Sequence record: PZ338877.1
From: a phage
Length of the DNA: 64,000 nt
Strand: one strand, 5' to 3'
A program made the position numbers and the translations under genes. Under the pieces are notes generated by a model. The model was not told the origin of the DNA and searched no databases. It saw only the letters and a list, made by a program, of their open reading frames with translations. Positions within the stretch are counted from its first letter, which is position 1, and each line of letters opens with the position of its first letter. This document shows positions 3,071-61,409 of the stretch, piece by piece.

Positions 3071-5416
3071 TTAAGCAGTTCTTACCCAAGCCATTAACTT
3101 GTAGAACTGGTTAGTAACACTAAATGCTGAACCAGAACCTGTACCCCCAGTGTTACCACTTACTGTGTGACTGTGAGCACCAATACCAACTGAGTGAGCG
3201 TGGTTACCAGCAGACGCAGCAGTACCACTTACAGAGTGGGTGTGAGCACCGTTAGCATCAGTGTAACCCGGCCCTGAACCAACGTATGCACCACCACCAC
3301 CAGAATAGTGCTGTGAGTTCTGACCAATCCACGAAATAGAGTGGTTGTGGTTACCAGCAGATGAAGTAGAGCCACTTACAGAGTGACTGTGAGCACCAGT
3401 TGTGTTAGTGTTTTTTGTTCCGTAGTCAAAAGATGAAGTGGTAGCAGAAAAACTGTGAGTGTGTGAAGGCAAGTTCCCAACAGCTAACGTCACAGAGTCT
3501 GAACCACCAGTTGTAGCAACATCTGAACCGTTTGCTGCTGCAATTCTGATAGTTCTACCAACACCATTGTTGAGGTACGTCCAAGTTAGACCAGGCAGTG
3601 CTGTATTAGGGTCAACATTACTGTTAAACCATGTCACAATACCCACTGGATAGATTTTATTAAGGTCTGTAGAATCACTTACTGCCTGTGCAATCTTCTG
3701 GTCAGTTTCAGTTTTAGTGTATGCACCAAGCTCTGAAGGGGTTGGTTTAAATGCCGTTGAATACAACTGTGCAGTTCCAACATATTCTCCATCTGACCCA
3801 TAAGCATATGTGAAGACATCAAGACCTTTAGACCCATATGTAAAAGAAATACCTCTAGCATGAGCAATACCAGCAGAATGTGCTACATGGATGGCTAAAT
3901 CTTTCATACCCTGCTCAATATCGTTGTTTCTTACAAACCCTGAATAGTCTTTATTGAATGATGCTGTGTCATCCAACCTATTAGTTGTCCTTACCATTAA
4001 AGATTGGTTTAACAGTTTTGTTTTTAAGAAATATCTAGCATCAATGTTAGTCCAATCTGAAGGCTGAACTTGACCAATGATTTTCACATTTTTATTCAAC
4101 AAGAAAACATCTTGCATATAAATCGTAGTTGCAGTGCTGCTGTTATGGATAATAAGTCTTTCTGGGTTGGATGATTCCCCATTCCCAATGTACCACCTTC
4201 TAACACCATCAGCATTATGACCAGCAAAGTATAGCTCTCCGTCTTGTGTAGTATTCTTTAGCTGTAACAATGAGCCATTCTGATTAATAATCTGTGCAGA
4301 CCTGAAAGTGTTCACATCACTTAACTTAGCAAGATTACTCAAAGTTCCTGCTGGGATGTATCTAGCGTCAATGTTAGTCCAATCTGAAGGCTGAACTTGA
4401 CCAGTGATTTTCACAGTCTTAGTAGTGGTAATCACATTTGACAAAGAGATAGTTGTACTCGTGGTGTAGTTATGTAGGTTGACTACAGAATCAGAGTTAT
4501 CAGTCCCTAAGTAGAACTTGTTTGTCCCATCAGCTTTCTGACCAAGCAGGTATAGCCCAGTTGCATCAGAGGCATTTTTAATAACTAGCACAGCATTATC
4601 TCTAGTGATATTGAACTCTCCTACAAAATTATTAATACCCCTGAAGGTGTTATTACCAACTAGCTGTGCAAATCTCTGATTAGCTGCCGTCTGTGTGAAG
4701 TATCTAGCATCTAAGTTAGACCAATCAGAAGGTTGAACTTGACCAGTAATCTGGAGAGACTTGTTCACAGTGATTAAGCTATCCAAAATAGCTACATATG
4801 CACCAGATTTAACATTTTTTAAAACAAGATTGTCTGTACCTTTGTTATCATTACCTAGATACCACCTGTTAGTACCATCTGCATCTTGACCGCGAATATA
4901 CAGCGGCATTCCTTGTGTAATATTCTTAACAATAATAGTTTCATTATCAGATAGAATATTTTGAGTACCTCTAAAGGTGTTACTTGCAGCCAATCTTGAG
5001 TATCTTGCATCATTCTCTTCATTAGTTCTCATCCCAAGCTCATTAGGGCTTGGCTTATTCAGAGTATGATAAACAGTTGCCGACCTTGAAGCATCTGCAA
5101 TAGTTAGTTTAAGGCCATTTGCGTTAATTTTAAAAGTCTTTAAAACATCCCCGATATTAATCTCAGAAGAGCCTGTTGGGTCAAAGACTGCCTTACCACC
5201 ATAAAGTAACTTAACAATCCCTAAGTCACCCGTCATAGTACTACCAGCAATCTGGACAAATCTCTCAAGCTTAAAAGACGCTAAGAAGTCTTGATAGGTC
5301 ATTCGACGGTCTTCATCACCTAGCATTTCAGGTCTCTTTTTAACCCTGACATGGAGAAGGTCGTCTGAACGAATTGTATCAATTGAGTTTAATTCACTCA
5401 ACTTGTAATCTGCCAT
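3071..5416 (-). CDS. tail fiber protein (long, distal; lambda Stf / T4 gp37-like tip)
   Basis: Track ORF 3071-5566 trimmed to internal Met51 (AAGAGGA RBS; avoids 104-nt overlap with upstream gene); three internal repeats containing QPSDW(T/S)N(I/L)DARY; C-terminal His-x-His motifs and SFDYGTK repeat. Confidence 0.8.
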
Positions 5417-5429
5417 TATAAATTTTCCT

Positions 5430-5451
5430 CTTAAAAGGGGCTTTATAGCCC
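5430..5451 (-). promoter_or_regulatory. intergenic stem-loop between the two tail fiber genes
   Basis: GGGGCT-loop-AGCCCC hairpin in the 46-nt spacer; same hairpin family recurs elsewhere in window. Confidence 0.4.
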
Positions 5452-5462
5452 CTGTAAAGAAA

Positions 5463-6611
5463 TTAAGCTGTTCTCTGCCATACATACAATACGAAGGATG
5501 GCTGTTCAACACTAAATGCTTGACCAGAACCAGTTGTACCAGTTGTACCAGAGTGTGAATGCTCACCTGCTCCGGTTACTGTTACTGTTGCTGAGTGGTT
5601 GTGGGAACCAATTGCAACAGTATGGCTGTGAGCACCAATACCAACCGTGTGATTATGCGCACCAATTGCTACAGAGTGAGTGTGGTTGTTAGCTGTTGTC
5701 AATGTAGCTCTTGGGTCATAGCTTGCCCCCTCAACCGATAAACCTCTCCAGCCACCATCAGCATAGCCACGGTTAATGAATGTTGTTTGTGTTAAACCAG
5801 CAGAACTTGTTGTTCTGTTGCCATAGTCATAAGTAGATACGGTCTTGGTTCCGTAGTCAAACGTGGTAGTTCCTTTAGTACCATAATCAAAAGCACTGAT
5901 AGAGGCCGTTGCACCATGAGTGTGACCACCACCAGTGACGTACACTGAGTGGGTATGTGCAGGGATGTTATTAACCGTCAGTGCAGTAGTCTGTGAACCA
6001 AACGTTGAACCAACTGGCCTAGAATCACTATCATAACCTACAAGTGCTCTCCCTTTTGAGACTAACTCCCAAGTACCTCCACAAATTAAATATGTAGAGG
6101 GGTTTGCAGGATTCATAGAGAGATGGATAGTACCTACTGGATAAGAAGCCTGAACAGCCTTGTACAAGTTATTTACTGCTCTTGCTGTAGCATACTTATC
6201 TGCATCTTCATTATAAAGGTTAGATGTTGTCCAGTTCTGGACATTACTTAAACCAACCTGTGCCTTAGTTGTATTGTGTGGGTTGCTCTTGTCATTAATA
6301 TGCTCTTGAATAAGGCTATTAACCTCTTCTGAAGACATAATCTGGAGATTTTTTCTTGCCTCAGCTACATTAACAATATCTGATAAGTTATTTGCAGCGA
6401 CTAACTGAAGAGCATTAATAACATTATCTAAACCAATTTGTGTCTTAGTAACACCATGAGGGTTATTTCTTAGGCTTGAGTGTGGAGCAAGTAATTGCTC
6501 AAGAGTACATCTCTTATCCTCAATACCCTGCTTAAGATGGAAGATATCACTAAGGTCAATTGGTAAGGCTGCTTGAGGCAAGGCACTAATTTGAATTTCA
6601 CCTACTGCCAT
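5463..6611 (-). CDS. tail fiber protein (paralog with His-rich C-terminal tip)
   Basis: 382 aa; NPH..TK.Q.GL.NV fibre repeats at N-terminus; C-terminus with FDYGTK x3 and HxH array ending ...W(Q/V)RTA like the neighbouring fiber. Confidence 0.75.
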
Positions 6612-26333: not shown

Positions 26334-26409
26334 TGGAGAATCCGAAGGGACTCGAACCCTTATAAACCTGTTTTGCAGACAGGCACATATCCATTTCTGT
26401 CACGGATTC
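26334..26409 (-). tRNA. tRNA-Cys (GCA)
   Basis: 7-bp acceptor pairing, T-loop TTCGAGT, anticodon loop CT-GCA-AA on reverse complement. Confidence 0.6.
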
Positions 26410-26413
26410 AAAT

Positions 26414-26506
26414 TGGAGGAAGATACCAGACTTGAACTGGTACACCGATTTCTCAGCTACTGGCAGTTTAGCAAACTGCTCCCTTACCTTTTAGGGTTAA
26501 TCTTCC
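26414..26506 (-). tRNA. tRNA-Ser (GCT), long variable arm
   Basis: 93 nt; acceptor pairing ATCTTCC/GGAAGAT, T-loop TTCAAGT, anticodon loop TT-GCT-AA. Confidence 0.6.
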
Positions 26507-26507
26507 A

Positions 26508-27242
26508 TTATTTCTGTAATGCGTTCTTCATTTCTGGTGTTGCAATAGTGTCAATCACACCAGTTTTACAAGCATCATCAAACCAGTCTGGTAAGATACC
26601 TGCTAAGAACCCATTGATATTCGTTTTAAGGTACTCTGCAATAAGGGCAGCTTCTTCTTCAATCATCTGCACAACTTCATCTGCATAAGCTGTAATCTTC
26701 GAGATACCTTCATTAATCTTACTAACAGCTTGATTAGCTAAATCAGAAATAGTATCAAGACCTTTATCAATAGCATCCTGTAAGTCGCTTAATACACCAT
26801 TAACGCCATCTAGTGTGCTGTTAATTGTATCCATAGCTTTTTGACCATACTCTGTAGCAACACCCATAATACCACTAAATGGTGTACAACCAACTTGCTC
26901 TCCTGCTGCACCCATAACATTGGAGTAGCCTTTTGCTACCTGCATACGTGAGGAAAACTCATCAATAGATTTTTGACCATAATCTGTCAATGTTTTAGTA
27001 GTTGCTGTAGTGCTTGTCAGACTCGTTGTAAAGCTATTAAGCAGAACTGTTGTAAGTCCAGCAGCAATGAGCTTATCCTTCATTGTAGGGTCTGTTACAG
27101 AGCTAATAGAGCTTACAAGTGATGTAGAGGCAGCTACGGTTCCACCTAGAACTGCTGCACCAGTAATAAGGGGATTAGAAAACCCTCTACCGGTTTTTAA
27201 GAGATTAAAAATCTCCTTACCTTGTTCTGTCATCTCTTTCAT
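26508..27242 (-). CDS. hypothetical protein embedded in tRNA cluster
   Basis: Track ORF trimmed to Met22 (AGGTG RBS) because upstream part overlaps a tRNA; 244 aa. Confidence 0.5.
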   Translation of the reverse strand: MKEMTEQGKEIFNLLKTGRGFSNPLITGAAVLGGTVAASTSLVSSISSVTDPTMKDKLIAAGLTTVLLNSFTTSLTSTTATTKTLTDYGQKSIDEFSSRMQVAKGYSNVMGAAGEQVGCTPFSGIMGVATEYGQKAMDTINSTLDGVNGVLSDLQDAIDKGLDTISDLANQAVSKINEGISKITAYADEVVQMIEEEAALIAEYLKTNINGFLAGILPDWFDDACKTGVIDTIATPEMKNALQK

Positions 27243-27260
27243 TAAGCACCTTTGAAATTG

Positions 27261-27335
27261 GTAGTCCAGTGGGATTTGAACCCTCTTCTCATGTTTTTCA
27301 GACACGCGCTTTAACCATATAAGCTACTTGGACTA
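27261..27335 (-). tRNA. tRNA-Phe (GAA)
   Basis: 7-bp acceptor TAGTCCA/TGGACTA, T-loop TTCAAAT, anticodon loop CT-GAA-AA. Confidence 0.55.
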
Positions 27336-27340
27336 TAAAT

Positions 27341-27416
27341 TGGGGTGACCTACGGGATTTGAACCCGTATAGACCATGTTCACAGCATGGGTCATTACCA
27401 TTTATGATAAGGCCAC
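27341..27416 (-). tRNA. tRNA-His (GTG)
   Basis: Acceptor pairing with one G-U, T-loop TTCAAAT, anticodon loop CT-GTG-AA. Confidence 0.6.
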
Positions 27417-27447
27417 ATTTAAGGACTCTCGTAAGAATCCTTAGAAG

Positions 27448-27523
27448 TGGCAGCGGCATAAGGATTTGAACCTTAATAAGACAGCTTCAGAGACTGCTGC
27501 ATTGCCAGTTATGCTATACCGCT
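27448..27523 (-). tRNA. tRNA-Gln (CTG), tentative
   Basis: Acceptor pairing, T-loop TTCAAAT; anticodon loop read as CT-CTG-AA with wobble-rich stem. Confidence 0.45.
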
Positions 27524-27528
27524 AAATT

Positions 27529-27599
27529 TGGTACTCCATATCGGATTCGAACCGATACATAACACAGATTTTAAGTCTGGCCTCTCTGCCAATTGGAGT
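27529..27599 (-). tRNA. tRNA, isotype undetermined (possible TAA anticodon)
   Basis: T-arm ATCGG-TTCGAAT-CCGAT and acceptor pairing clear; anticodon arm ambiguous, short body. Confidence 0.4.
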
Positions 27600-27609
27600 A
27601 ATGGAGCAT

Positions 27610-27685
27610 TGGCGGGGGATGTTGGAATTGAACCAACTTCTTCGATTTCAAAGACCGAGGTTTTAACCTTGTAAACTAATCCCCT
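27610..27685 (-). tRNA. tRNA-Gln (TTG)
   Basis: T-loop TTCAATT, anticodon stem TCGGT/ATCGA, loop CT-TTG-AA. Confidence 0.5.
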
Positions 27686-27693
27686 TTAAATCT

Positions 27694-28251
27694 TTACTTT
27701 CTTAGTGGATGAATAAAGAATGCCAACATAACTCTTTCCCTTGAGAATGCTCTTTCTTCTGGGACAACACTTTTAAGTTTCCATCCAACATAAATTCTCC
27801 AGTAGAATTGTTTACCAAAGACTTTAATTGATGGGATAAAGGCGAATAATCCCCAAGCATTACTGTTCCACATTAGGAGATAACCTGTCTGATTATCTTC
27901 AGGGTCAGAACTTACGTTGATATTACCTTTCCACTTAGTAACATCTTTTACATCTCTTCCTAACACATGGTAAGAGAAGTTATAAGCTTTGTTTCTCCAG
28001 AGCCATCCAACTCTCTGCAAATAGACACCCAGCTTACCAATCTTTCTAATCTTAGCCCATCTTTTAATGTGACCTTCATCACCATCAATTGGGTTGTCAT
28101 ATGTCTCCATCCATCTGAATCCGAAAGGTAGATGTCCTTTCTTCTCACTATAGAATGGAACTACAAAAGGTGCTAAGATAACTGCTAAGGTTGCTGCCAA
28201 TGGGTCTAACAAAGCTAGGAAAATCCATGAAGCATACTTCAAATATCTCAT
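27694..28251 (-). CDS. membrane protein embedded in tRNA cluster
   Basis: 185 aa; hydrophobic N-terminal segments, Trp/Lys-rich. Confidence 0.5.
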   Translation of the reverse strand: MRYLKYASWIFLALLDPLAATLAVILAPFVVPFYSEKKGHLPFGFRWMETYDNPIDGDEGHIKRWAKIRKIGKLGVYLQRVGWLWRNKAYNFSYHVLGRDVKDVTKWKGNINVSSDPEDNQTGYLLMWNSNAWGLFAFIPSIKVFGKQFYWRIYVGWKLKSVVPEERAFSRERVMLAFFIHPLRK

Positions 28252-28270
28252 CTAAATAGCCTCTTTAAAT

Positions 28271-28346
28271 TGGTGCAGGATAAGGGATTCGAACCCCTAT
28301 TAACAGCTTCGTAGACTGCTGCTCTATCCATTTGAACTAATCCTGC
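28271..28346 (-). tRNA. tRNA-Arg (ACG)
   Basis: Exact 7-bp acceptor GCAGGAT/ATCCTGC, T-loop TTCGAAT, anticodon loop CT-ACG-AA. Confidence 0.5.
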
Positions 28347-28460
28347 TTACCTACAAGAACACCATACAGTTTTTCACAATCTTTGTTTTTACGTCTGTTT
28401 AGGTATGACGCTCTAAACTTTTTTGCTATTGACTTATCACTCATAGTGCTCTCCCAAAAT

Positions 28461-28538
28461 TGGTGTTCCAAGACGGATTCGAACCGTCACTAGTACAAGG
28501 TTTGAGCTTGCATCCTCTGCCAATTGGGATATTGGAAC
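28461..28538 (-). tRNA. tRNA with CAA anticodon (Leu-type anticodon but short type-I body)
   Basis: Perfect 7-bp acceptor GTTCCAA/TTGGAAC, T-arm GACGG-TTCGAAT-CCGTC, anticodon stem GCAAG/CTTGT, loop CT-CAA-AC. Confidence 0.45.
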
Positions 28539-28539
28539 A

Positions 28540-28612
28540 TGGTGCTCACTAAAGGACTTGAACCTTTTTCTTCATCTTGTAAGGGTGATGTTTTACCATA
28601 TAAACTAAGCGA
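28540..28612 (-). tRNA. tRNA-like sequence (possible pseudo-tRNA)
   Basis: Good T-arm AAAGG-TTCAAGT-CCTTT and CCA end, but acceptor and anticodon stems pair poorly. Confidence 0.3.
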
Positions 28613-28705
28613 GTATGAAAGAGGTCTGAAGTTGTGCCGCTCACTCAACTCCGTGGAATTTGTTACGGTCTTCAGTTGACACCAGCGGTCTTTCACTTGA
28701 CCTCT
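28612..28705 (-). ncRNA. structured RNA candidate bounded by 7-bp terminal inverted repeat
   Basis: AGAGGTC...GACCTCT ends; internal CTGAAGACCGT motif similar to the repeated elements further right. Confidence 0.25.
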
Positions 28706-28709
28706 GAAT

Positions 28710-41323: not shown

Positions 41324-41348
41324 AGCCTCCTTAATTGGGGGCTTTTTA
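41324..41348 (+). terminator. intrinsic terminator ending plus-strand block
   Basis: AGCCTCC-TTAATT-GGGGGCT hairpin followed by TTTTT. Confidence 0.6.
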
Positions 41349-41352
41349 ATTT

Positions 41353-42947
41353 TTATAAAATTTCATCGGTTGTCCCAACCTCTGGGTCACCATCATATGT
41401 GAATAAAATATCTACCCTTCTTAACAACCTTCTTAAGCTTACTCTCTATATATAGTTATATAGTACTATATAGTATCTTAGTATCTATCTAGTGGTCTTA
41501 ATAGCCCCTCTGTATAGCCCTTCTAAACACTCTTCTAACAAGCCTTCTTAACAACCTATACAATCACCTTAACCATCTCTCTACACACTCTTAGAAGCCC
41601 CTATACACCTCTTAATCTCTATGTCAGCTATGTTACTCTCTATAGGTGTTCACTAGGTATTACTAAGCCTCTATATAGACTGTTTTAACAAACTTAACAG
41701 GAATATCTTTACAGACCTTATCTCACAAGGTCTAACACGGTACTAACAAGGTATCTTATAAGCCTGTTTATGCCTGTATTTTTAGAAGACTGTCTAGGTA
41801 ATTATTCAGAATTTTAAAATTTTTATAAAATAGGGCTATCAAGTCATTTTTTAGGGTCTTTGAAGGAACTCAAAAATATCTGTCTGGGATGTATATCTGC
41901 TTGGTAGCCCTTAACATCCCTGTAACATCCCCTTTGCAGAATTTTAAAATATCATTAACAATCTCTTAACAGTTATCACATCTTCTTAACATCTCTTCAG
42001 AGGTCTTAACAGTTTCTTAACAGTTTTAACAAGGGTTTAACAGTTTTCTAACAAGTGCTGAATAGTCTTTACAGATGCTTAACAGATGACTAACAAGAGC
42101 TAACAAGTTAATTTTTAAGAGTTATTTTGTTAAGATAATTAACAAGTTTCTAACAAGTGTTTAATCTTTTTAACAAGCTATTAACATGGTCACTATCTCT
42201 TTCTTATCGTTCCCTTTCCCTCTTAGTGATTCTTTAAATAGCCCTCTTAAAAGCTCTCTATAGCTCCTTGTAAGCTCTTTTAAGTCTCTTCCTAGTAATT
42301 ACACCCCAACTATGTAGAAAGCTCTTTATAGGGCTTTACAGGGGCTTTAAAGGCTATGTCAAAGACTCTTACAAGGATTTTACATGGTTTTAACAGAGAT
42401 TTAACAAGGGGCTAACAAGTTGCTAACAAGTGCCTTAAAAGCATAACTATGTAGGATTTGTTAAGAAATTGTTAAGAAAATGTTAAGGGGGCTAGCATTT
42501 ACGTAACTTTTAAGCAACTTTGAAGTAACTTTATAGCCCCTATAACATACTTTTAAGACACTAACAAGCCCTTTTTAGTAGTTCACAAGATAGCTAACGA
42601 GATGATAAAGCTTACACCCTTATAAGATTCTTTTAAGGCTCTGGGAAGCTTTATAAAGGGCTTTTAAGGGTGAGGTAATGCAATCCCTTAAGTTAGGTTG
42701 ATAAGGCTGTTATAGGGCTTTATAGAGCGTTTAAATGGTTGCCCTTCCCTTTCGGGTTATGGGCTTATATTTAAGTTGATTTGATAAAAGGCTATAGAGT
42801 AAGCTATAGAGTTATTGCTTTTTAAGGTCTGATAAGATTCTGGAAAGGGAAAGGGAAAGGATTGTATAAGGATTGTATAAGACGTAAAAAAGCCCCATAT
42901 AAAGGGGCTGTAAAGGTATCTGGGGCTAAATAGCCCCGTTGCGGCGT
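41353..42947. repeat. 1.6-kb ORF-free region dense in short direct repeats (candidate origin or regulatory hub)
   Basis: No ORF of 60 aa or more on either strand; about 25 copies of TTAACA(A/G)(G/T)-type octamers, tandem GAAAGGG x3, AGGATTGTATA x2, several GGGGCT/AGCCCC hairpins; lies between convergent transcription units. Confidence 0.5.
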
Positions 42948-43196: not shown

Positions 43197-43264
43197 TTTA
43201 GAGTCTCCTAGTTTAAGGACTTTATTTAGTAGGGAGGTCATCCCTCCCGTTGATTAGTAATTTA
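43197..43264 (-). promoter_or_regulatory. type-A intergenic cassette (stop codon, GGGAGG hairpin, RBS)
   Basis: On minus strand: TAA-ATTACTAATCAAC-GGGAGGGATAACCTCCC-...CTAGGAGA-spacer-ATG. Confidence 0.5.
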
Positions 43265-43525: not shown

Positions 43526-43593
43526 CTTGATAACTCCTAGTTTAAGGACTTTACTTAGTGGGGAGGTTATCCCTCCCGTTGATTAGTAATTTA
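43526..43593 (-). promoter_or_regulatory. type-A intergenic cassette
   Basis: Near-identical copy with GGGAGG-GATAA-CCTCCC hairpin. Confidence 0.5.
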
Positions 43594-44121: not shown

Positions 44122-44190
44122 TTTTGAATCTCCTAGTTTAAGGACTTTACTTAGTGGGGAGGTTATCCCTCCCGTTGATTAGTAATTTAC
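44122..44190 (-). promoter_or_regulatory. type-A intergenic cassette
   Basis: Same 65-70-bp conserved leader. Confidence 0.5.
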
Positions 44191-44342
44191 TTGTTTTGAT
44201 AGCTGATTGCAAGCAATTTTTTTAAGTTTATCTATAAAGAATCTTTTAAGTTAATCCCTTTTAGATAAACCCCCTCGAACAAAGTTACCAATGTCAAGAG
44301 GGATTGTCAACACTTTTTTAAAAGTTTTTTGTAAGTTCTTGA

Positions 44343-44684: not shown

Positions 44685-44757
44685 TTTTGAATCTCCTAGT
44701 TTAAGGACTTTGTTTAGTTGGGAGGTCATCCCTCCCGTTGATTGACAATTTACAGAC
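44685..44757 (-). promoter_or_regulatory. type-A intergenic cassette (variant)
   Basis: Variant with GATTGACAATTTAC end and GGGAGG hairpin. Confidence 0.45.
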
Positions 44758-45006: not shown

Positions 45007-45072
45007 GATTTAAGCCTCTTAAAAGCCCCTTACAGGGGCTGAATAGTGTTTATAAGGTGATTGTATAGGTTT

Positions 45073-45615: not shown

Positions 45616-45705
45616 TTTTGAATCTCCTAGTTTAAGGATTTAGCGGTAAAGCTCTTTATCTGGGGCTTACTTTATCGAACTATAAGCCCCTTGTAAAGTA
45701 CTTTA
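45616..45705 (-). promoter_or_regulatory. type-B intergenic cassette (GGGGCTTA...TAAGCCCC hairpin, RBS)
   Basis: Minus strand: TTTACAA-GGGGCTTA-13nt-TAAGCCCC-AGATAAAGAGCTTTACCGCTAAATCCTTAAACTAGGAGATTCAAAA-ATG. Confidence 0.5.
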
Positions 45706-45906: not shown

Positions 45907-45975
45907 TTTTTGAATCTCCTAGTTTAAGGACTTTATTTAGTGGGGAAGGTCATTCCCGCCCCGTTGATGTGTAAT
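45907..45975 (-). promoter_or_regulatory. type-A intergenic cassette (degenerate hairpin)
   Basis: Conserved flanks but altered GGGGAAGG...CCCGCCCC stem. Confidence 0.4.
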
Positions 45976-46010
45976 TTAATCTATCTGAAAACCAGTGTCA
46001 ACAAAAATTT

Positions 46011-46415: not shown

Positions 46416-46501
46416 TTTTAAGTTCTCCAATTTAGGATTTAGCGGTAAAGCTCTTTATCTGGGGCTTACTTTATCGAACTATAAGCCCCTTGTAAAGTAC
46501 T
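46416..46501 (-). promoter_or_regulatory. type-B intergenic cassette
   Basis: Near-identical to copy at 48443-48531. Confidence 0.5.
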
Positions 46502-54553: not shown

Positions 54554-55663
54554 TTAGATTTCACGTTTACGTTGGGAGATGAGTTCACCAGCAGTGCCAA
54601 CGATGACATGCAAAGCTTCAGTCTTACCGTCCCATGCTTTCAGCACTTTACGTTGATTATCAACGATTGCTGCAACTTCATAACGGGATGAACGCATCTT
54701 CATATCGTTGTAATCAGTCGGAACAGATACAACATCTCGTGGATGGACACGAACCTTCAGGATGGTATCACCTGAGAAGCAACGAACATAATCCCAAGCA
54801 CCAACATGAAGACCCTGAGAGCAAGTTACGTTACGGTTATTATCCACCATCCAACGTGGCATTTCTACAATGTTACCCAAATCATTAGGTACTTTGTAGG
54901 TGTGGGAGTCAACCAGCTTGCCTTCACGAGTAGAAACTTTCTTCCAACCGATGATGTAACCTTCTTCATCAATTTCAACATCAAGGTGAGATACAAATCC
55001 CCAAAGTTGCTCTACAGAGTCTTTAGATGGGTTTTCCATCAGTTTTTCGAAGAACATTACAAGTCGTTCAAAACCTTTATCACCAGTCTTCATCATGTGA
55101 AGGATACGGTCAACCAGAGTAGAACGCATCTCAACAGCACCGTAGAATAACTTGTCACCTTTGATTGTGATAGCACCCTGAGTGAAGTTTTCGATAGACT
55201 TACGAATGTTCATCAGTTCAAATGCTTTCTTGAACTCACCTTTCACAACATGAACTACAATTTCTTGATAGTTCGGATGAGTGGACTCAACAATTTCAGA
55301 TTCTGAACCATAAGTCATAATTACAGAGTCACCAGTAATCATATACTCAATCTTGTCATCTTTCTGCATAGCTTCGTGCAGTTTATTTACCGGAGCTTTC
55401 TGTACAGGCTCTTTAACAACCTTTTCAACTGGTTTGCCAGCTTTCTTTTTAACTGACTTAGCAACTTGCTTCAAAGTCTTCGTAGCTGGTTTAGAAGCTG
55501 CCTTTTTCTTCCCTTTTAAGGTTGCTTCATGACGCTCTACAGCACGACCAACTGAACGGGTTGAAGTATTGAACTTCTGTGCAATAGCTGTTTTAGTCAG
55601 CTTGCCTTCTTTAACCAGTTTGTAAATTTCTGCGTCAATCTGTGCTTTAGTTTTAGTAGTCAT
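54554..55663 (-). CDS. rIIB: rIIB-like protein
   Basis: 369 aa immediately downstream of rIIA-like gene; basic N-terminus with HTH-like segment. Confidence 0.55.
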   Translation of the reverse strand: MTTKTKAQIDAEIYKLVKEGKLTKTAIAQKFNTSTRSVGRAVERHEATLKGKKKAASKPATKTLKQVAKSVKKKAGKPVEKVVKEPVQKAPVNKLHEAMQKDDKIEYMITGDSVIMTYGSESEIVESTHPNYQEIVVHVVKGEFKKAFELMNIRKSIENFTQGAITIKGDKLFYGAVEMRSTLVDRILHMMKTGDKGFERLVMFFEKLMENPSKDSVEQLWGFVSHLDVEIDEEGYIIGWKKVSTREGKLVDSHTYKVPNDLGNIVEMPRWMVDNNRNVTCSQGLHVGAWDYVRCFSGDTILKVRVHPRDVVSVPTDYNDMKMRSSRYEVAAIVDNQRKVLKAWDGKTEALHVIVGTAGELISQRKREI

Positions 55664-55707
55664 CTTGTTACTCTCTCTTGTTAGTTAATAAATCATTTTG
55701 TGAGGTT

Positions 55708-55737
55708 ATTCTAAGGGGCTTCAAAGCCCCTTGTCAA
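55708..55737 (-). promoter_or_regulatory. sigma70-like promoter with hairpin in spacer (upstream of rIIB)
   Basis: Minus strand: TTGACA-AGGGGCTTTGAAGCCCC-TTAGAAT; consensus -35 and near-consensus -10 separated by a GC hairpin. Confidence 0.45.
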
Positions 55738-55742
55738 ACACT

Positions 55743-58109
55743 TTAATCGTAAATTGTAGTTCCTTCTGGAACACACTTCACATCAAAGCCTAAGAACTTA
55801 CTCACTTCAATAGGTGACACTTTATTCCAATCTAAATGAGAAAGCAAGAAGTTTTCTTGTTTTCTTTTTGAAAGATAGTTTGTCACCTTGATGACCATAC
55901 GGTCACCAGCTTTCTTAATTTTCTTGTACAGCTTTGTATCATTGTCAAGGCACTCTTTCAAAGTTTGCAACCGACTAATAGTGTAAGTGTATGCAAACGG
56001 TGCAGCAACGTATTGGATTTTACCAAACATTGCCTCAACAGCATCTTCATTACCTTCTAAGAAGATAGTTTTGTTTGTGTCTCGTGAATAGCAATAACCG
56101 CGAGAAATCTTCCTGTTGTTGAACGTAAAGTTTCTGGCAATAATCCAACTGCTTGTAAGGTCTAGGACACCATTCATATAGATACGTGTCATATACCTGT
56201 TATGATTAATCCAGTGAACATCAGTTAAGCTGTCGTTCAAGAGCTTCTCATCTACTTCAATCCAGTCTTCTGGTATCTTTTTCCAATTTGCTTTTCGGAA
56301 AACATAGACTGTCTTTTCAATGACATTGGCAACTGACTTAGCTACATCATCTGGAGATGAGCAAAAACATTTGCCATCAACAGTATCACCAACTGCCTTA
56401 ATATAAAGTTGAGGCTCTTCAATTGTGTCTAAGTCTTCTGACACCTCTGTGTATGAGGCTACACCTTCTGCTGGAACAGCTTTCCAGAGTTTTACAACAC
56501 CTCTTACAGCTTCTTTACGCTGATAATGATGTTCCTTATCAGACATCTTTACAATCTTTAACAAGCTTTTATCAAGTTTGTGTAGATTGATTAGGTCGTC
56601 TAACTCTTTCTCAGTAGAGAATACGAAGACAATACCATTGTATCTGTGAAACAGGTTTGACTCACTGGCATAGTCTCGACATGCACCACGCAGAATCTGA
56701 TTGCGGCCTACAGTCTTCTCAGTACCGTTTTTATTGCGACGGTCATTTATAACAAACAAAAACTGTTCAATTTGGCTTTTACGCATTGCGCCAAAGATAT
56801 TGAACATACTTGCCTCTTGAGTGTAGGAAAGCGATGTTGCACGAATCTTACTCTCTAAAGAGTTGAACTTGACATAAGCAACTGGATTATAAAGATAATC
56901 TACTTTAGGGATGTTGTTTCCGTTCCTATCAACCTTAATATTACCTTTACCGTCACGTTCATAAATGACTGAGCCGTCTTCTGCGTAGATAATCCCACGA
57001 CGAATGTTTAGTAATTCTTCTTCCAGAGAATCAAGCTTAACACCTCCCCACTCTAGCTTTGGACACACAGCATTAAACATCTCTCGTGAGTTCAAACGTA
57101 ACTCAGCATAAGCCTGTGCAGCATCCATGAGTGTAGGTTGGCTATTAACTTTCTTGATAACATCCTTTGTAATTGCTTCAGTTATCTTTTTAGTAGCCTC
57201 AATGATAACATTTTTTGTCGTGTCATTCATCTGCAATGCTTCACGAGAAGCTGCAATAGCAACTGAGCCAATAGGCATGTAGATGTTTACAAGGTCTACG
57301 CTCCTACGGAAAAATTCTGGCAAGACTTTGAAAAAATCATCACCAAGTAATGCTTCCATATTCACTGGATAGGCAATATTACCCATCACCACATTAAACT
57401 CTGTCCTGTTAGCACCAGAACGCCAGCTTTGCTTATGAATCATGGCATCATAAACACCTTCTTCACGGGCAATGACATTCATATCTGCTAATACATCATC
57501 ATACTCGATATTACTTTCTGGTTTTACAGCAAAGTATGAGTATACGTGACCAGCCTCTTCAAAGAACTTTGAGATACGATGGTCAGCAACTGCTACACGT
57601 ACAGCTAAACCATTAGGCTCTTTTGTTGGGTTGGTGGTCAGCTTAGTTACTTGAGGGATACCATTCTCAAGATAAACAGAGTACTTATTAACAACACCAT
57701 CAACATAACTGGACACTGTGAATGACTGAGCAATTGCAAATGGGGATTTTGAGCCGATACCCATTGCACCAATGTAGTCATTAGAGTCATTCTTCGTAGA
57801 AGCCCCGTAGTTTAGATACAAACTCATAACTTTATCATGAGTCAATCCAGTTCCGAAATCACGAACTTCAAAGTAAGGCTCAAAACGAGTAGGTAAATGC
57901 ACATGGAACGGGATGTTCTCTTTTCCAGCTTCTTTCTGAGCATCTACTGCGTTACATGACAGTTCACGAATTACTGCTTGCTCTTTAAAGGTATATACAC
58001 CAGAACTCAGAAGGCTGAACATTTCAGGTGTCATTGTAATCTGTGCTTGAGATGTCTCTAAAGAAGTTGAACTCTTAATCACTTCTGCGTGGTCGTTTAC
58101 CATGCGCAT
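55743..58109 (-). CDS. rIIA: rIIA-like protein (GHKL ATPase-like N-terminus)
   Basis: 788 aa; N-terminal ELSCNAVDA ... VRDFGTGL ... GAMGIGSKS blocks matching GHKL/HATPase motifs; followed by rIIB-like gene. Confidence 0.65.
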   Translation of the reverse strand: MRMVNDHAEVIKSSTSLETSQAQITMTPEMFSLLSSGVYTFKEQAVIRELSCNAVDAQKEAGKENIPFHVHLPTRFEPYFEVRDFGTGLTHDKVMSLYLNYGASTKNDSNDYIGAMGIGSKSPFAIAQSFTVSSYVDGVVNKYSVYLENGIPQVTKLTTNPTKEPNGLAVRVAVADHRISKFFEEAGHVYSYFAVKPESNIEYDDVLADMNVIAREEGVYDAMIHKQSWRSGANRTEFNVVMGNIAYPVNMEALLGDDFFKVLPEFFRRSVDLVNIYMPIGSVAIAASREALQMNDTTKNVIIEATKKITEAITKDVIKKVNSQPTLMDAAQAYAELRLNSREMFNAVCPKLEWGGVKLDSLEEELLNIRRGIIYAEDGSVIYERDGKGNIKVDRNGNNIPKVDYLYNPVAYVKFNSLESKIRATSLSYTQEASMFNIFGAMRKSQIEQFLFVINDRRNKNGTEKTVGRNQILRGACRDYASESNLFHRYNGIVFVFSTEKELDDLINLHKLDKSLLKIVKMSDKEHHYQRKEAVRGVVKLWKAVPAEGVASYTEVSEDLDTIEEPQLYIKAVGDTVDGKCFCSSPDDVAKSVANVIEKTVYVFRKANWKKIPEDWIEVDEKLLNDSLTDVHWINHNRYMTRIYMNGVLDLTSSWIIARNFTFNNRKISRGYCYSRDTNKTIFLEGNEDAVEAMFGKIQYVAAPFAYTYTISRLQTLKECLDNDTKLYKKIKKAGDRMVIKVTNYLSKRKQENFLLSHLDWNKVSPIEVSKFLGFDVKCVPEGTTIYD

Positions 58110-58684: not shown

Positions 58685-60466
58685 TTAAAGTTGCTTGTCA
58701 ATATTATTTCGAATATCACCAAGAGATGTGTAACCGAACTGCTCAGAGTCACTAAAGACTAAACGTAAAGCACAAGCTGGGTGTTCAAGCACATCTGCAA
58801 AGCTCTGGAATCCATAGCCATCTACAGCTTTCAGCTTATCACCATCCCACATAGGTGCTACACCACCAAAAGCAGACTTCTTAACACCACTATCTGTTTT
58901 AGGGTCTTTTGCAAGCATAATCTCTTTGCCACCAATGCTTGCAAGAGTTGCTTTGACAGCAAATGCAAAGGTGTCACGAGTCATGTACTGGTAAGTGTAA
59001 GAGCCTACACCAAACACTACGTTAGAGCTTGCAAAACCCATTTCATACAAACGCTTCAGGATTTCGTTTGCACGTTCCAGCGTGATAGAGTCACCATAAA
59101 TAAGCCCGATGTGCTCATCCAGTACTTTAAAACCTTTAGAGTTGATAGTTCCTCCAAAGATGTTATACAGTGTCTTGATAGCTCCATCAATCTCTGCTAC
59201 AGGACGTGTTACAACATTTGCAGAACCAACCATATAAGCATTTTTCAACATAACTGTATCAGCAACTTCAAAGTCTTCTCTGTCAACAACCATCTCGTAG
59301 CCTTCTGACAGTAGCCATCCAGCAATACCATAACTGATGTTTTCAAGCTTCATGTTCAGAACAGCATTCAACATTGTGTCGCTTGCTTCCAGCTTGCTTA
59401 GGTGTTCGTAATAAGCTTTTTTAGCGCACTCTAAATGGATTGCTTTATAACCTGTGACAATATGTACAGGGTCACCAGAGTCAGGACGAATTACCAGTTT
59501 GCCGTCACGTTCCATAATCTCTTTACGAAGTGCTGGTAAGATTTCTGATACAGTTCTCCAGAAGTTATAAGTGTCTGAAACAACACTTGCAATACCAGTT
59601 GGGTAAGTTTCTGTTAAGAAACGACGGAAGGTTTGTAACTCACCTTTAAAGCGTCTTTCTTCTTCAACCAACTCATTCCCACCTTCCCAAGCAATGTTTG
59701 CACACATGACAGAGTGTTCAGTGGCTGGTACAGAACCACCAATATCGGAAATTGGATAGGACTGTCCATAGATGCGTTTAGCTGTATATACAGCAGGGAA
59801 GCTATCAGTTCCTTTAAAGCTGGTTAAGTGACCTACAGCATTAAATGCGTCATCAGTAAAGCCAGACATACCACGCATAGCAAAGTCATGGCACTGATAA
59901 GGTAAATGCAAGTCATTGTCGCAAGTAAGGTCAGACCACTTCTTACAGATACGTTTGTAGTGCAATGCAATAGTTGCAATGGTACAAGCCTTCCAAATCT
60001 CAGCAGAGAAAGCATCTTCCAGATACCCAGCTACCCAATGGAAACCTGAAACAGTGTTCTGGAAGACAATCATTGGTACACGCATAGGAACAACTGTGCC
60101 TTCTTCTACAGCGTATACTTCAACTGGTAGATAGCCTAAGTCGTGAAGTGCTTCCCAATGTTCTCGACCAATAGCATCTTTACCCAGAACACCGTTCATG
60201 ACTTCTAAGATTTCGTCAATTGCTTCTTTTTTGTCACGTTCAAAGAAGGTGGTGTTCCAGTGGTCTATCAAGTAATCTTTAACAAAACGTTGAATACCAA
60301 AAGCAACTACACCGTCAATTGCTAAAGGGCTGTTAAACCATTTATCACTACGTGGTGTCAGGTTGAACATTAGGTACTCTGTTGCACTAGGATACTGATA
60401 AATATGGCCAGACTTGTAAGCATCCGCGTTTAAACCTGCTGGTACTGCATAAAGTGATTTAGTCAT
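58685..60466 (-). CDS. nicotinamide phosphoribosyltransferase family protein (Nampt/NadV-like; possibly Namat of an NAD+ reconstitution pathway)
   Basis: Trimmed to Met7 (ATG); N-terminal ...DAYKSGHIYQYP matches Nampt DSYK.tHy.QYP motif; ~593 aa; adjacent to Prs-like gene. Confidence 0.8.
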   Translation of the reverse strand: MTKSLYAVPAGLNADAYKSGHIYQYPSATEYLMFNLTPRSDKWFNSPLAIDGVVAFGIQRFVKDYLIDHWNTTFFERDKKEAIDEILEVMNGVLGKDAIGREHWEALHDLGYLPVEVYAVEEGTVVPMRVPMIVFQNTVSGFHWVAGYLEDAFSAEIWKACTIATIALHYKRICKKWSDLTCDNDLHLPYQCHDFAMRGMSGFTDDAFNAVGHLTSFKGTDSFPAVYTAKRIYGQSYPISDIGGSVPATEHSVMCANIAWEGGNELVEEERRFKGELQTFRRFLTETYPTGIASVVSDTYNFWRTVSEILPALRKEIMERDGKLVIRPDSGDPVHIVTGYKAIHLECAKKAYYEHLSKLEASDTMLNAVLNMKLENISYGIAGWLLSEGYEMVVDREDFEVADTVMLKNAYMVGSANVVTRPVAEIDGAIKTLYNIFGGTINSKGFKVLDEHIGLIYGDSITLERANEILKRLYEMGFASSNVVFGVGSYTYQYMTRDTFAFAVKATLASIGGKEIMLAKDPKTDSGVKKSAFGGVAPMWDGDKLKAVDGYGFQSFADVLEHPACALRLVFSDSEQFGYTSLGDIRNNIDKQL

Positions 60467-60488
60467 CTTTTTAATCTCTCTCAAAATG

Positions 60489-60504
60489 GGGCTTTGAAGC
60501 CCCT
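60489..60504 (-). promoter_or_regulatory. GGGGCTT-CAAA-GCCCC stem-loop between Prs-like and Nampt-like genes
   Basis: Same hairpin as in the rIIB promoter spacer; followed by TTGAGAGAGA leader. Confidence 0.4.
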
Positions 60505-60512
60505 ATAAAGTT

Positions 60513-61394
60513 TCAATCAATGGTAATTACAGTAACTTGGGCATAATGTGTTAAGCCACGGTCTTTAGCTTCCCCTAAAGAGTTTGTAGTGTAGATATGG
60601 TCAATACCATTGTCAAGTAAGTTTTCAACACCTTTAGAGAAAATGCCATGAGTTACATAGAGTTCCACACGTTTTGCACCTGCTTCACGAAGATGTTTAG
60701 CTGCTTCTATGAAGGTTCGACCACCATCACAGATATCATCGAGAATCATGACAGTTTTATCTGTCAAATCAACAGCATCAAGGATTCGCATACCAGTAAT
60801 TTCACCAGTCTTAAGGTTGCGTACTTTAGACATTGTGATGTATGGTTTATCCACCTCTTTAGCAGCCTCTTCAGTCTTCTTAGCTGCACCTGCATCTGGA
60901 GCTACCAATAAATCAATGCGTGGGTCACTTGCAAAGTGTACTGCCACATCTTTTTGCTTCATGCTCTGGAAGCACTTAAATAAGTTTTCTGCAACATTGC
61001 TGTGAGGGTCAAGAGCACATACTGCATCAAAACCCATTGCATTAACGAGGTTGGCAAAAGCTTTCAGTGCTGCTGAATCGCCTTTGAACATATGGCGGTC
61101 ATATCGAGCATTCGGTAAGAACCCGAAAACAACGGTTTTCATCGCTGATTTATATGGAACAAGACTGTCAATGGCATCCTTAGCCAAAGCTAATGCAAAC
61201 AGTGTATCTTTATCATATCCCTGCACAGTAAGTATAACATTGTCAATCTTACCAGCATTACGCTCAGTAAACTTAACAAAATCTTCAGAGAAGTTTCCAC
61301 CAATTTCTCCAGATGGGAATTGGATGATATTAAATTTTTCTGTGTGGAAGAATTTCTCTTGTGCGGTGACAACGGCTTCAATAATAGTTTTCAT
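60513..61394 (-). CDS. ribose-phosphate pyrophosphokinase family protein (Prs-like; possibly ADPR-PP synthetase Adps)
   Basis: Trimmed to Met6 (first ATG; track start appears to be TTG); motifs PNARYDR, ALDPHS and PRPP-binding loop ILDDICDGGRT match Prs. Confidence 0.8.
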   Translation of the reverse strand: MKTIIEAVVTAQEKFFHTEKFNIIQFPSGEIGGNFSEDFVKFTERNAGKIDNVILTVQGYDKDTLFALALAKDAIDSLVPYKSAMKTVVFGFLPNARYDRHMFKGDSAALKAFANLVNAMGFDAVCALDPHSNVAENLFKCFQSMKQKDVAVHFASDPRIDLLVAPDAGAAKKTEEAAKEVDKPYITMSKVRNLKTGEITGMRILDAVDLTDKTVMILDDICDGGRTFIEAAKHLREAGAKRVELYVTHGIFSKGVENLLDNGIDHIYTTNSLGEAKDRGLTHYAQVTVITID

Positions 61395-61409
61395 AGTTTT
61401 CTCTCTCAA

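Follow-up and report, generated by a model that had tools for sequence, protein, structure and literature searches.

A gap of 79 nt separates the rIIA and rIIB genes in the phage genome of record PZ338877.1, of which 64,000 nucleotides were analysed as a whole (the window), and in this gap, at positions 55737-55708 of the minus strand, a sequence resembling a sigma70 promoter carries a GC-rich hairpin in its spacer. The locus raises the question of what a hairpin might do inside a promoter, and whether it acts as DNA or as RNA. As judged from its sequence, the window is that of a Felix O1-like phage (Felixounavirus, subfamily Ounavirinae); over the rIIA-rIIB region it is 97% identical to Salmonella phage SapYZU01, and 277 related phage records were found. 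The data described below point to a working host-type (sigma70) promoter of rIIB combined with a hairpin that marks the end of the upstream message, an arrangement that would separate the rIIA and rIIB units. We assign this reading a probability of roughly 0.62.

On the minus strand the element reads TTGACA-A-GGGGCTTTGAAGCCCC-T-TAGAAT, and the full order of signals is TAA (rIIA stop)-AGTGT-TTGACA-A-GGGGCT-TTGA-AGCCCC-T-TAGAAT-AACCTCAC...AAGAGAGAGTAACAAG-ATG (rIIB). The parts of the site are the following:
55745-55743, minus strand: rIIA stop codon (sequence)
55737-55732, minus strand: -35 hexamer TTGACA of the putative rIIB promoter (sequence, 11/12 consensus scan, conservation)
55731-55714, minus strand: spacer of 18 nt (sequence)
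55732-55713, minus strand: hairpin AAGGGGCT-TTGA-AGCCCCTT, which fills the spacer; core GGGGCT/AGCCCC at 55730-55715 (sequence, folding, conservation)
55713-55708, minus strand: -10 hexamer TAGAAT of the putative rIIB promoter (sequence, consensus scan, conservation)
55664-55701, minus strand: predicted 5' untranslated region (5' UTR) of rIIB, from about 55701 to the ATG (from the position of the -10 box)
55663-55661, minus strand: ATG of rIIB (sequence)

A preliminary description, prepared from the nucleotide sequence of the window, had named a consensus sigma70-like promoter and a GC hairpin in its spacer, and both were recovered, the promoter as a near-consensus one. The minus-strand sequence is as described and agrees with the sigma70 consensus at 11 of 12 positions, and the stem can be extended to 8 bp (AAGGGGCT/AGCCCCTT) by means of the last base of the -35 box (A) and the first base of the -10 box (T). 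Folding of the hairpin as RNA yielded -12.5 to -14.2 kcal/mol (z -2.65). The GC-rich 8-bp stem begins 10 nt past the rIIA stop codon, and the 6-bp core about 12 nt past it. The position of the -10 box places the probable start of rIIB transcription at an A near 55701, 7 nt past this box, and the predicted 5' UTR contains the Shine-Dalgarno-like (SD) sequence AAGAGAGAG at 55671-55679. Five sites with a score of 11/12 or better are present in the 64 kb, compared with 1.8 +/- 1.3 in simulations. The combination of a promoter score of 10/12 or better with a GC hairpin of 6 bp or more inside the spacer occurs a single time, the expectation from Markov simulations being 0.01 per 64 kb. The promoter score, the rarity of the composite and the excess of such hairpins over expectation argue that promoter and hairpin did not come together by chance.

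The sequences upstream of rIIB were compared in 30 relatives from IMG/VR, in Mooglevirus phage HP1 and in Felix O1. The -35 box TTGAC, both hairpin arms (GGGGCT and AGCCCC) and the motif T-TA(G/A)AAT are kept in 29 of the 30 relatives and in Felix O1, so that the hairpin is indeed conserved in related phages, as the preliminary description had required. The -10 box is TAGAAT or TAAAAT in every alignable relative. Variation is found in the loop (TTGA, TCAA, GAAA or GCAA), in the bases upstream of the -35 box and in the discriminator and 5' UTR; in relatives with 77-85% rIIB identity the extra A is missing and the spacer has the optimal length of 17 nt. At 55% rIIB identity, the relative L031 has TTGACA-N17-TCTAAT with another hairpin (AAGTGG.../...CCACTT) around its -10 box, and Pectobacterium phage Wc4-1 (55-60% identity) has yet another hairpin in its rIIA-rIIB gap. 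Because these two phages place different hairpins in the same gap, the predicted promoter-hairpin architecture is one that outlasts its sequence.

These comparisons bear on the possibility that the hairpin has no function of its own and is a passenger from a terminator or mobile cassette, kept by repeat homogenisation or as recombination homology. Such an origin would agree with the cassettes described below, which mark indel boundaries with one junction exactly one cassette long, and with the stem mismatch that two relatives tolerate at rIIB. On the other hand, the rIIB site is present in single copy, and its arms stay the same from genus to genus (77-99% protein identity) next to a loop and flanks that change; a different hairpin takes the same place at 55-60% identity, and the one-sided wobble changes point to selection for pairing in the RNA. 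A mere passenger thus appears improbable.

The loop of the rIIB hairpin occurs in two forms, TTGA and TCAA, which are exact reverse complements and are found without intermediates on three flanking haplotypes (loci L003/L014, L008/L011/L009 and L017-L019/L018/L025). The opposite forms are present in one genome in the window, at rIIB (55721-55724) and between the genes Prs and Nampt (60494-60497). This pattern suggests a recurrent hairpin-mediated inversion, or conversion between the rIIB and Prs|Nampt copies.

The rIIB hairpin belongs to a genome-wide family, as had been claimed. The exact pattern GGGGCT-N3-14-AGCCCC has four matches in the window (5437-5452, 42922-42937, 55715-55730 and 60488-60503) against an expectation of 0.01, to which the long cassettes termed A-type have to be added. 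The word GGGGCT occurs 20 times on the plus strand and 25 times on the minus strand, with about 5-6 copies expected per strand. When all GGGGC/GCCCC hairpins of all intergenic regions were listed, three contexts became apparent, namely the rIIB spacer, six A-type cassettes, and short hairpins without a usable -10 box, including copies with swapped arms and a T-run.

The A-type cassettes are located between small early genes at 45.6-49.0 kb and follow the pattern TTTACA-GGGGCT...AGCCCC-AGATAAAG with the -10 box in the hairpin loop. Their complete order is stop codon, AAAGTAC, TTTACA, A, GGGGCTTA, loop with the -10 box, TAAGCCCC, AGATAAAGAGCTTTACC, a conserved leader, SD and ATG. Hairpins next to TTTACA had been noticed before, and these exist, but they are the six long-loop cassettes, the arms of which are 16-17 nt apart and therefore escape the N3-14 pattern:
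48913-49000, minus strand: A-type cassette TTTACA-A-GGGGCTTAA..(-10 TATCTT in loop)..TTAAGCCCC-AGATAAAGAGCTTTA..SD (fold -20.2 kcal/mol, z -3.9)
48458-48531, minus strand: A-type cassette, -10 TAAAGT in loop (fold z -5.2)
48090-48184, minus strand: A-type cassette, -10 TATCTT in loop (hairpin listing)
47485-47576, minus strand: A-type variant with arms GGGGCTA/TAGCCCC, -10 TAGGAT and outer helix AAAT:ATTT (fold z -5.3)
46431-46501, minus strand: A-type cassette, -10 TAAAGT (hairpin listing)
45616-45702, minus strand: A-type cassette, -10 TAAAGT (hairpin listing)

In the six loops, TAAAGT, TATCTT or TAGGAT stands exactly 17 nt past TTTACA. A set of 86 unique A-type variants was compiled from the window, HP1 and 16 further loci, and in 85 of them TAnnnT is kept 17 nt past TTTACN (18 nt in four with a 1-nt insertion) with at least 11 different hexamers, which is the pattern expected for a putative -10 box under selection. 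The long cassettes fold as three nested helices (5+5+9, together 19 bp) that are interrupted by internal loops, with energies from -20 to -23 kcal/mol and z values from -3.9 to -5.3. An Rfam scan of the whole window returned tRNAs only and no known RNA family at the cassettes; the tRNA cluster comprises 26 genes at 26334-31530 on the minus strand, 24 of which were confirmed by Rfam at the gathering score.

The remaining members are short hairpins. Two of them lie next to genes that the preliminary description had named correctly, as was evident from PHROGs and from the annotations of relatives:
54554-55663, minus strand: RIIB
55743-58109, minus strand: RIIA
58685-60484, minus strand: Nampt
60513-61409, minus strand: Prs
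3071-5566 and 5463-6611, minus strand: two tail-fibre genes
The short hairpins themselves are as follows:
60488-60503, minus strand: GGGGCT-TCAA-AGCCCC in the Prs|Nampt gap, then ATTTTGAGAGAG, no -10 box (pattern, fold)
5436-5453, minus strand: AGGGGCT-ATAA-AGCCCCT in the tail-fibre gap, then TTTTAAGAGG, no -10 box (pattern, fold)
42922-42937, minus strand: GGGGCT-ATTT-AGCCCC, then AGATACCTTTAC, a truncated cassette tail (pattern)
42891-42909, minus strand: swapped-arm hairpin AGCCCC-TTTATAT-GGGGCT, then TTTTTT, a canonical terminator closing the early block (fold, T-run)
45024-45040, minus strand: swapped-arm hairpin AGCCCC-TGT-AAGGGGCT, then TTTAAGAGG (fold)

The hairpins in the Prs|Nampt and tail-fibre gaps are thus present as described, although the coordinates had to be corrected from 60489-60504 and from 5430-5451, and neither is a promoter. 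At these two sites and at the hairpins 42922-42937, 42891-42909 and 45024-45040, a -35-like word is found nearby and a -10 box (TAnnnT at 16-18 nt) is absent. Accordingly, the words TTTACA and TTTATA beside the Prs|Nampt and tail-fibre hairpins were rejected as promoters. The Prs|Nampt hairpin is kept in Mooglevirus HP1 with the loop GAGA. The hairpin at 42891-42909 matches terminator t23 of Felix O1, and the tail-fibre hairpin is probably equivalent to the t76 site, a GGGGGCT-type hairpin after gene 76 that is listed as a terminator (PMC3185647). In the tail-fibre gap (5425-5465, minus strand), an outer helix UUCUU/AAGAG pairs with the SD sequence (AAGAGG) of the downstream tail-fibre gene, and translation of the second fibre gene might be tied to unfolding of the hairpin.

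Several further hairpins had been placed in the region of 1.5 kb without open reading frames (ORFs) at about 41340-42890, between convergent gene blocks. This claim did not hold, since the GGGGCT/AGCCCC half-sites of that region (41.34-42.89 kb), which are enriched and occur in both orientations, are unpaired; the two true hairpins (42891-42909 and 42922-42937) are located at its right edge and are not promoters. The region is also dense in the words TAACAAG, CTTCTTAACA and TATAGGGCTTTA, and TTCTAA-type words similar to those of this region occur in the tail of an Erwinia phage. In Mooglevirus HP1 a terminal repeat_region is annotated about 470 nt past the last annotated gene of the equivalent block. 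The ORF-free region is probably a physical genome end or a terminal repeat.

What is conserved in this family was apparent from the changes that the stems tolerate. In the 86 A-type cassettes, the fifth arm pair is C-G in 57 variants, U.G in 27, U-A in one, mismatched in one and never C.A. A C-to-T change in the 5' arm leaves pairing intact in the sense-strand RNA alone, and the mirror change from G to A in the 3' arm is absent among the cassettes, which results in a one-way asymmetry of 27 GGGGTT/AGCCCC versus 0 GGGGCT/AACCCC. The alignment of the cassettes contains 97.1% paired cells, more than any of 500 shuffles, and slid controls reached 30-62%. The covariation score was 0.103, compared with 0.061 in shuffles, and none of the 500 shuffles attained it. 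Compensatory changes were found in the innermost stem pair and in an outer helix (G-C 65, U-A 13). In Erwinia phages (Kolesnikvirus) the framework TTTACA...(A/T)GATAAAG is combined with the arms GGTGTT/AGCACC, with one compensated pair and a wobble, or GGGGTT/AACCCC, which is compensated. Moreover, the short hairpins of Mooglevirus have the GNRA loops GAAA, GAGA and GCAA, and GGGGTT/AGCCCC is common and has become fixed in this genus. Because the stem keeps its pairing by wobble and compensatory changes across the 86 variants and three further genera, with the Erwinia phages deciding the matter, and because the wobbles are valid in sense RNA alone, the object under selection is a sense-strand RNA hairpin and neither the word GGGGCT nor a double-stranded operator.

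The same data bear on the idea that the palindrome is a double-stranded DNA operator, bound by a dimeric phage or host regulator that switches promoters. The core GGGG(C/T)T...AGCCCC is invariant in more than 100 copies of Felixounavirus and Mooglevirus, the palindrome is located inside promoters and unpaired half-sites accumulate in the ORF-free terminal region, all of which speak for this idea. A dimer would however have to accept half-sites 3-7 nt apart in short copies and 16-18 nt apart in long ones, half-sites that become asymmetric in one direction, a loop orientation that flips freely, and arms that are replaced in Erwinia and Pectobacterium phages with pairing kept. In addition, pairing extends past the hexamer differently at each site, and the hairpin also stands at non-promoter sites and, with arms swapped, serves as a plain terminator. 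The palindromic operator was rejected on the grounds of variable spacing, asymmetric half-sites and arm replacement, and it retains only a very small probability. For the same reasons, with a half-site spacing that ranges from 4 to 17 nt, the earlier suggestion that the hairpin couples initiation to a DNA- or RNA-binding factor was not upheld.

A structural role of the DNA itself would be an alternative, in which a cruciform or a stiff spacer renders the promoter dependent on supercoiling and the long cassettes present the -10 box as a pre-melted loop. This would make sense of the -10 box that the long cassettes carry in their loop and of the GC-rich spacer of 18 nt at rIIB, and the recurrent exact flip between TTGA and TCAA on three haplotype backgrounds indicates that the palindrome acts at least as a mutational hotspot at the DNA level, in replication or recombination. 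As DNA, however, GGGGTT/AGCCCC mispairs T with G on one strand and C with A on the other, and yet it is common and fixed in Mooglevirus. Cruciform extrusion is costly with loops of 11-14 nt, and the same hairpins are found at non-promoter sites. A structural role of the DNA is therefore regarded as very improbable.

A hairpin acting in read-through RNA, the preferred explanation, had been one of the mechanisms offered in the preliminary description, and it fits the position of the start downstream of the hairpin, the sense-strand wobbles, the compensatory pairs and the GNRA loops. In this model, polymerase binding at the rIIB promoter would start about 7 nt past TAGAAT, near 55701, and give rise to a new transcript without the hairpin. 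Polymerase coming from rIIA would read through the gap, and its RNA would fold into GGGGCU-UUGA-AGCCCC about 12 nt past the rIIA stop codon. Since the predicted start lies downstream of the 3' arm, the hairpin should be foldable in read-through RNA alone; in the A-type cassettes the predicted start is at the CCCC-A junction (CCCC-AGATAAAG). The hairpin would most likely attenuate read-through or block 3'-exonucleases after cleavage; rIIA and rIIB would thereby be expressed as separate units, with the promoter restarting transcription for rIIB. We infer promoter activity, the start site and the effect of the hairpin on the RNA from the arrangement of these signals. The same logic might apply throughout the genome and across Ounavirinae, whether the hairpin occupies the spacer, its loop contains the -10 box, or transcription would start inside the 5' arm of a terminator.

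With respect to the fate of the incoming RNA, a classical intrinsic terminator was rejected for the promoter-embedded copies for want of a U-tract. The 8 nt after the stem contain 6-7 T in canonical terminators (AGGCTCC-UUCG-GGAGCCU and similar), 3-5 in non-promoter GGGGCT hairpins and 0-1 in promoter-embedded hairpins. Because there is essentially no U-tract, efficient intrinsic termination is unlikely at the rIIB hairpin. Possible roles at the RNA level are weak attenuation, a block to 3'-exonucleases after cleavage and, for the long cassettes, RNase III-type processing.

Processing might also be the primary function, with RNase III or a similar enzyme cutting at the hairpin, especially at that of the long cassettes of about 19 bp, and so dividing polycistronic early RNA into monocistronic messages, each with a stem that protects its end, in the manner of the early RNAs of T7. 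The three nested helices of the long cassettes with their low folding energies are in favour of this proposal, as are the compensatory G-C to U-A change in their outer helices, the retention of these helices in Erwinia phages, and the lack of a U-tract, which fits processing better than termination. RNase III sites span some 20 bp, or two helical turns, in which most bases are paired and an internal loop is often present; the rIIB stem of 6-8 bp is far too short for this. The middle helix is invariant and provides no evidence from covariation. Processing is, moreover, a variant of an RNA-level explanation and not a true alternative to it; as the primary function we consider it unlikely, if less so than a passenger, an operator or a structural role of the DNA.

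Published expression data for Felix O1 were compared with the preferred model of promoter and read-through hairpin. Maxima in reverse transcription-PCR (RT-PCR) were reported at 10 min for rIIB and at 25 min for rIIA (PMC3185647, Table 3). ORFs 16 and 20, each directly downstream of an A-type cassette, peak at 5 min (PMC3185647). These timings are supportive but coarse with regard to cassette promoters. The Felix O1 paper names five promoters, none of them between rIIA and rIIB, lists the A-type cassette solely as a '57 bp direct repeat', and states that the passage of transcription past many terminators, and its timing, are not known (PMC3185647). Promoters are not mentioned in the paper on wV8.

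Several observations weigh against the preferred model. The rIIB spacer, being GC-rich and 18 nt long, is suboptimal for sigma70, and the 8 nt that follow the 8-bp stem of the hairpin include a single T (three if counted from the 6-bp core), which falls short of a U-tract. Two relatives (L008 and L030) have an AACCCC arm at rIIB, which creates a C.A mismatch and a weaker stem in the sense RNA. The arms of the rIIB site itself contain no compensatory change, so that the evidence from covariation rests on paralogous cassettes and other genera; the GGGG/CCCC core is invariant within Felixounavirus and Mooglevirus, and since the cassettes are related by descent and recombination, the pair counts exceed the number of independent events. 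Felix O1 ORF17, also downstream of an A-type cassette, peaks at 25 min and not at 5 min (PMC3185647), and the published RT-PCR timing is of the coarse end-point type. Finally, neither mapped transcription starts nor mapped 3' ends of Felix O1-like phages were found in the searchable literature.

The combination of promoter and hairpin extends beyond the GGGGCT family. Of 20 intergenic hairpins, 10 overlap a promoter of at least 9/12 with its predicted start inside or after the hairpin, compared with 5.3% at random positions; the six A-type cassettes are not independent, and counted per locus the proportion is 5 of 15. Three ordinary terminators have a promoter immediately upstream with the predicted start within their 5' arm:
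58701-58650, minus strand: promoter TTGACA-N16-TATGAT (11/12) with terminator at 58673-58650
62012-61961, minus strand: promoter TTGAAA-N17-TACTAT with terminator at 61983-61961
36510-36564, plus strand: promoter TTGACA-N17-TATCTT with terminator at 36547-36564
A start in the 5' arm means that new transcripts would escape the terminator that halts incoming ones. In Pectobacterium phage Wc4-1, TTGACA promoters likewise overlap hairpins of unrelated sequence, the loop or 3' arm of which contains the -10 box.

Additional arrangements were noted in the early region. At 44122-44342 (minus strand), two overlapping TTGACA boxes are present within a CCCTC...GAGGG hairpin (TTGACA-ATCCCTCTTGACATTGG-TAACTT); its arms are ACCCC/GGGGT in HP1 and Felix O1, and this site is a promoter in a hairpin with unrelated arms. 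The B-type cassettes (minus strand; 43232-43248, 43561-43577, 44157-44173, 44720-44736 and 46810-46826, and also in the gap 45907-46010) have the order TTGACA/TTGCAA-N17-TAAATT-ACTAATCAAC-GGGAGGG-ATAA-CCTCCC-CACTAAGTAAAGTCCTTAAACTAGGAG, with the hairpin in the 5' UTR and hence inside the transcript. In two copies (starts 43241 and 44729) the ATG lies in the hairpin loop directly after GGGAGG, and the B-type hairpin might couple folding to the start of translation. The 505-nt gap at 49208-49712, upstream of the first cassette gene, contains 3-4 copies of a direct repeat of about 30-34 nt (minus strand ...TTTTCATTTT(C/A)(A/G)AA-N-GTGCAG(G)TA...). A similar array is found in an Erwinia phage (L053, 5491-5949), and one related copy stands before the TGCTGTATAAT promoter that follows rIIB (54454-54553). 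These repeats could be iterons or an array of binding sites.

Among known elements, repetitive extragenic palindromic (REP) elements of E. coli and the early RNase III sites of T7 are stable intercistronic stems without a U-tract that act on read-through RNA alone, as is proposed here, and the long cassettes, with their length and their internal loops, are similar to substrates of RNase III. Unlike the cassettes described here, REP elements and T7 RNase III sites are not superimposed on promoters. The intrinsic terminators t23, t38 and t76 of Felix O1 (PMC3185647, Table 2) likewise have a GC-rich stem (6-9 bp) close behind a stop codon, and that work counts GGGGCT-type stems followed by a T-run among the terminators (PMC3185647), whereas the promoter-embedded copies have a -10 box where the U-tract would be.

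The closest likeness, which the preliminary description had not recognised, is to the promoter-early stem-loop (PeSL) cassettes known from the T4-like phages RB49/phi1, PST and nt-1 (Arbiol et al. 2010, PMC2839356; Comeau et al. 2014, PMC4122927). The defining features of a PeSL include a stop codon upstream, within an AT-rich stretch, a sigma70 promoter with -35 and -10 boxes, and an SD sequence and start codon at its 3' side; PeSLs attenuate read-through when tested with reporters, and they mediate the shuffling of genes (PMC2839356). The rIIB site and all six A-type cassettes combine a stop codon, an AT-rich stretch, a sigma70 promoter, SD and start codon in one intergenic cassette, with the stem-loop in the spacer (rIIB) or the -10 box in the loop (A-type) and with G.T pairs in 27 of the 86 variants. 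All sequence features of the published definition are present. As with PeSLs, copies of the cassette recur between small ORFan early genes, and where relatives have gained or lost genes, cassettes form the boundaries. All six A-type cassettes and the B-type cassettes lie within 43-49 kb, the gene-order strings of 11 genomes differ in the cassette region alone, and the segment 48910-48183 is missing in one relative (L043), where the junction is exactly one cassette with a 90-nt overlap of the flanking alignments.

There are also differences. The cassettes occur in Ounavirinae and not in T4-like phages, the rIIB copy is solitary, deeply conserved and part of a core region, not of a hyperplastic one, and the long cassettes have two additional helices on the outside. 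For PeSLs, activity as promoter, as terminator and in the formation of mini-circles was demonstrated by experiment, whereas for the present cassettes such activities are putative. A blastn search with a 98-nt cassette found 1,432 places in 288 records, about 5 per genome, under enterobacterial phage names. No T4-like relative could be identified among the matches listed, and those that could be placed all belong to Ounavirinae (one Staphylococcus and one Campylobacter record were not inspected, and the RB49 cassettes were not aligned directly). For this reason the likeness to PeSLs is read as one of architecture and not of descent. The searchable literature contains no report of PeSLs in Felix O1-like phages. 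The kind of element is already known, but there appears to be no earlier description of it in Ounavirinae, of the covariation specific to one strand or of the extension to ordinary terminators.

A wider proposal, which we regard as tentative and on the doubtful side, is that Ounavirinae independently evolved the PeSL solution as a genome-wide rule, with sigma70 promoter DNA and a hairpin in the incoming RNA at nearly every transcript boundary and with long cassettes of an RNase III-like type, the extended stem of which would end or process the upstream message and be absent from the new one. If so, the rule would explain how transcription gets around many terminators, the question left open in the Felix O1 paper; the cassettes would be portable 'stop-and-restart' modules that also drive gene shuffling, and such modules would have arisen by convergent evolution in two unrelated groups of virulent myoviruses. 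Independently of this proposal, the predicted promoter-plus-hairpin sites provide a concrete, testable transcription map for phages in wide use for the typing and biocontrol of Salmonella and E. coli, and, as compact natural 'insulate-and-restart' parts with many natural variants, they could serve phage engineering. The concept of the PeSL, not a new principle in itself, would thereby be extended beyond the T4-like phages.

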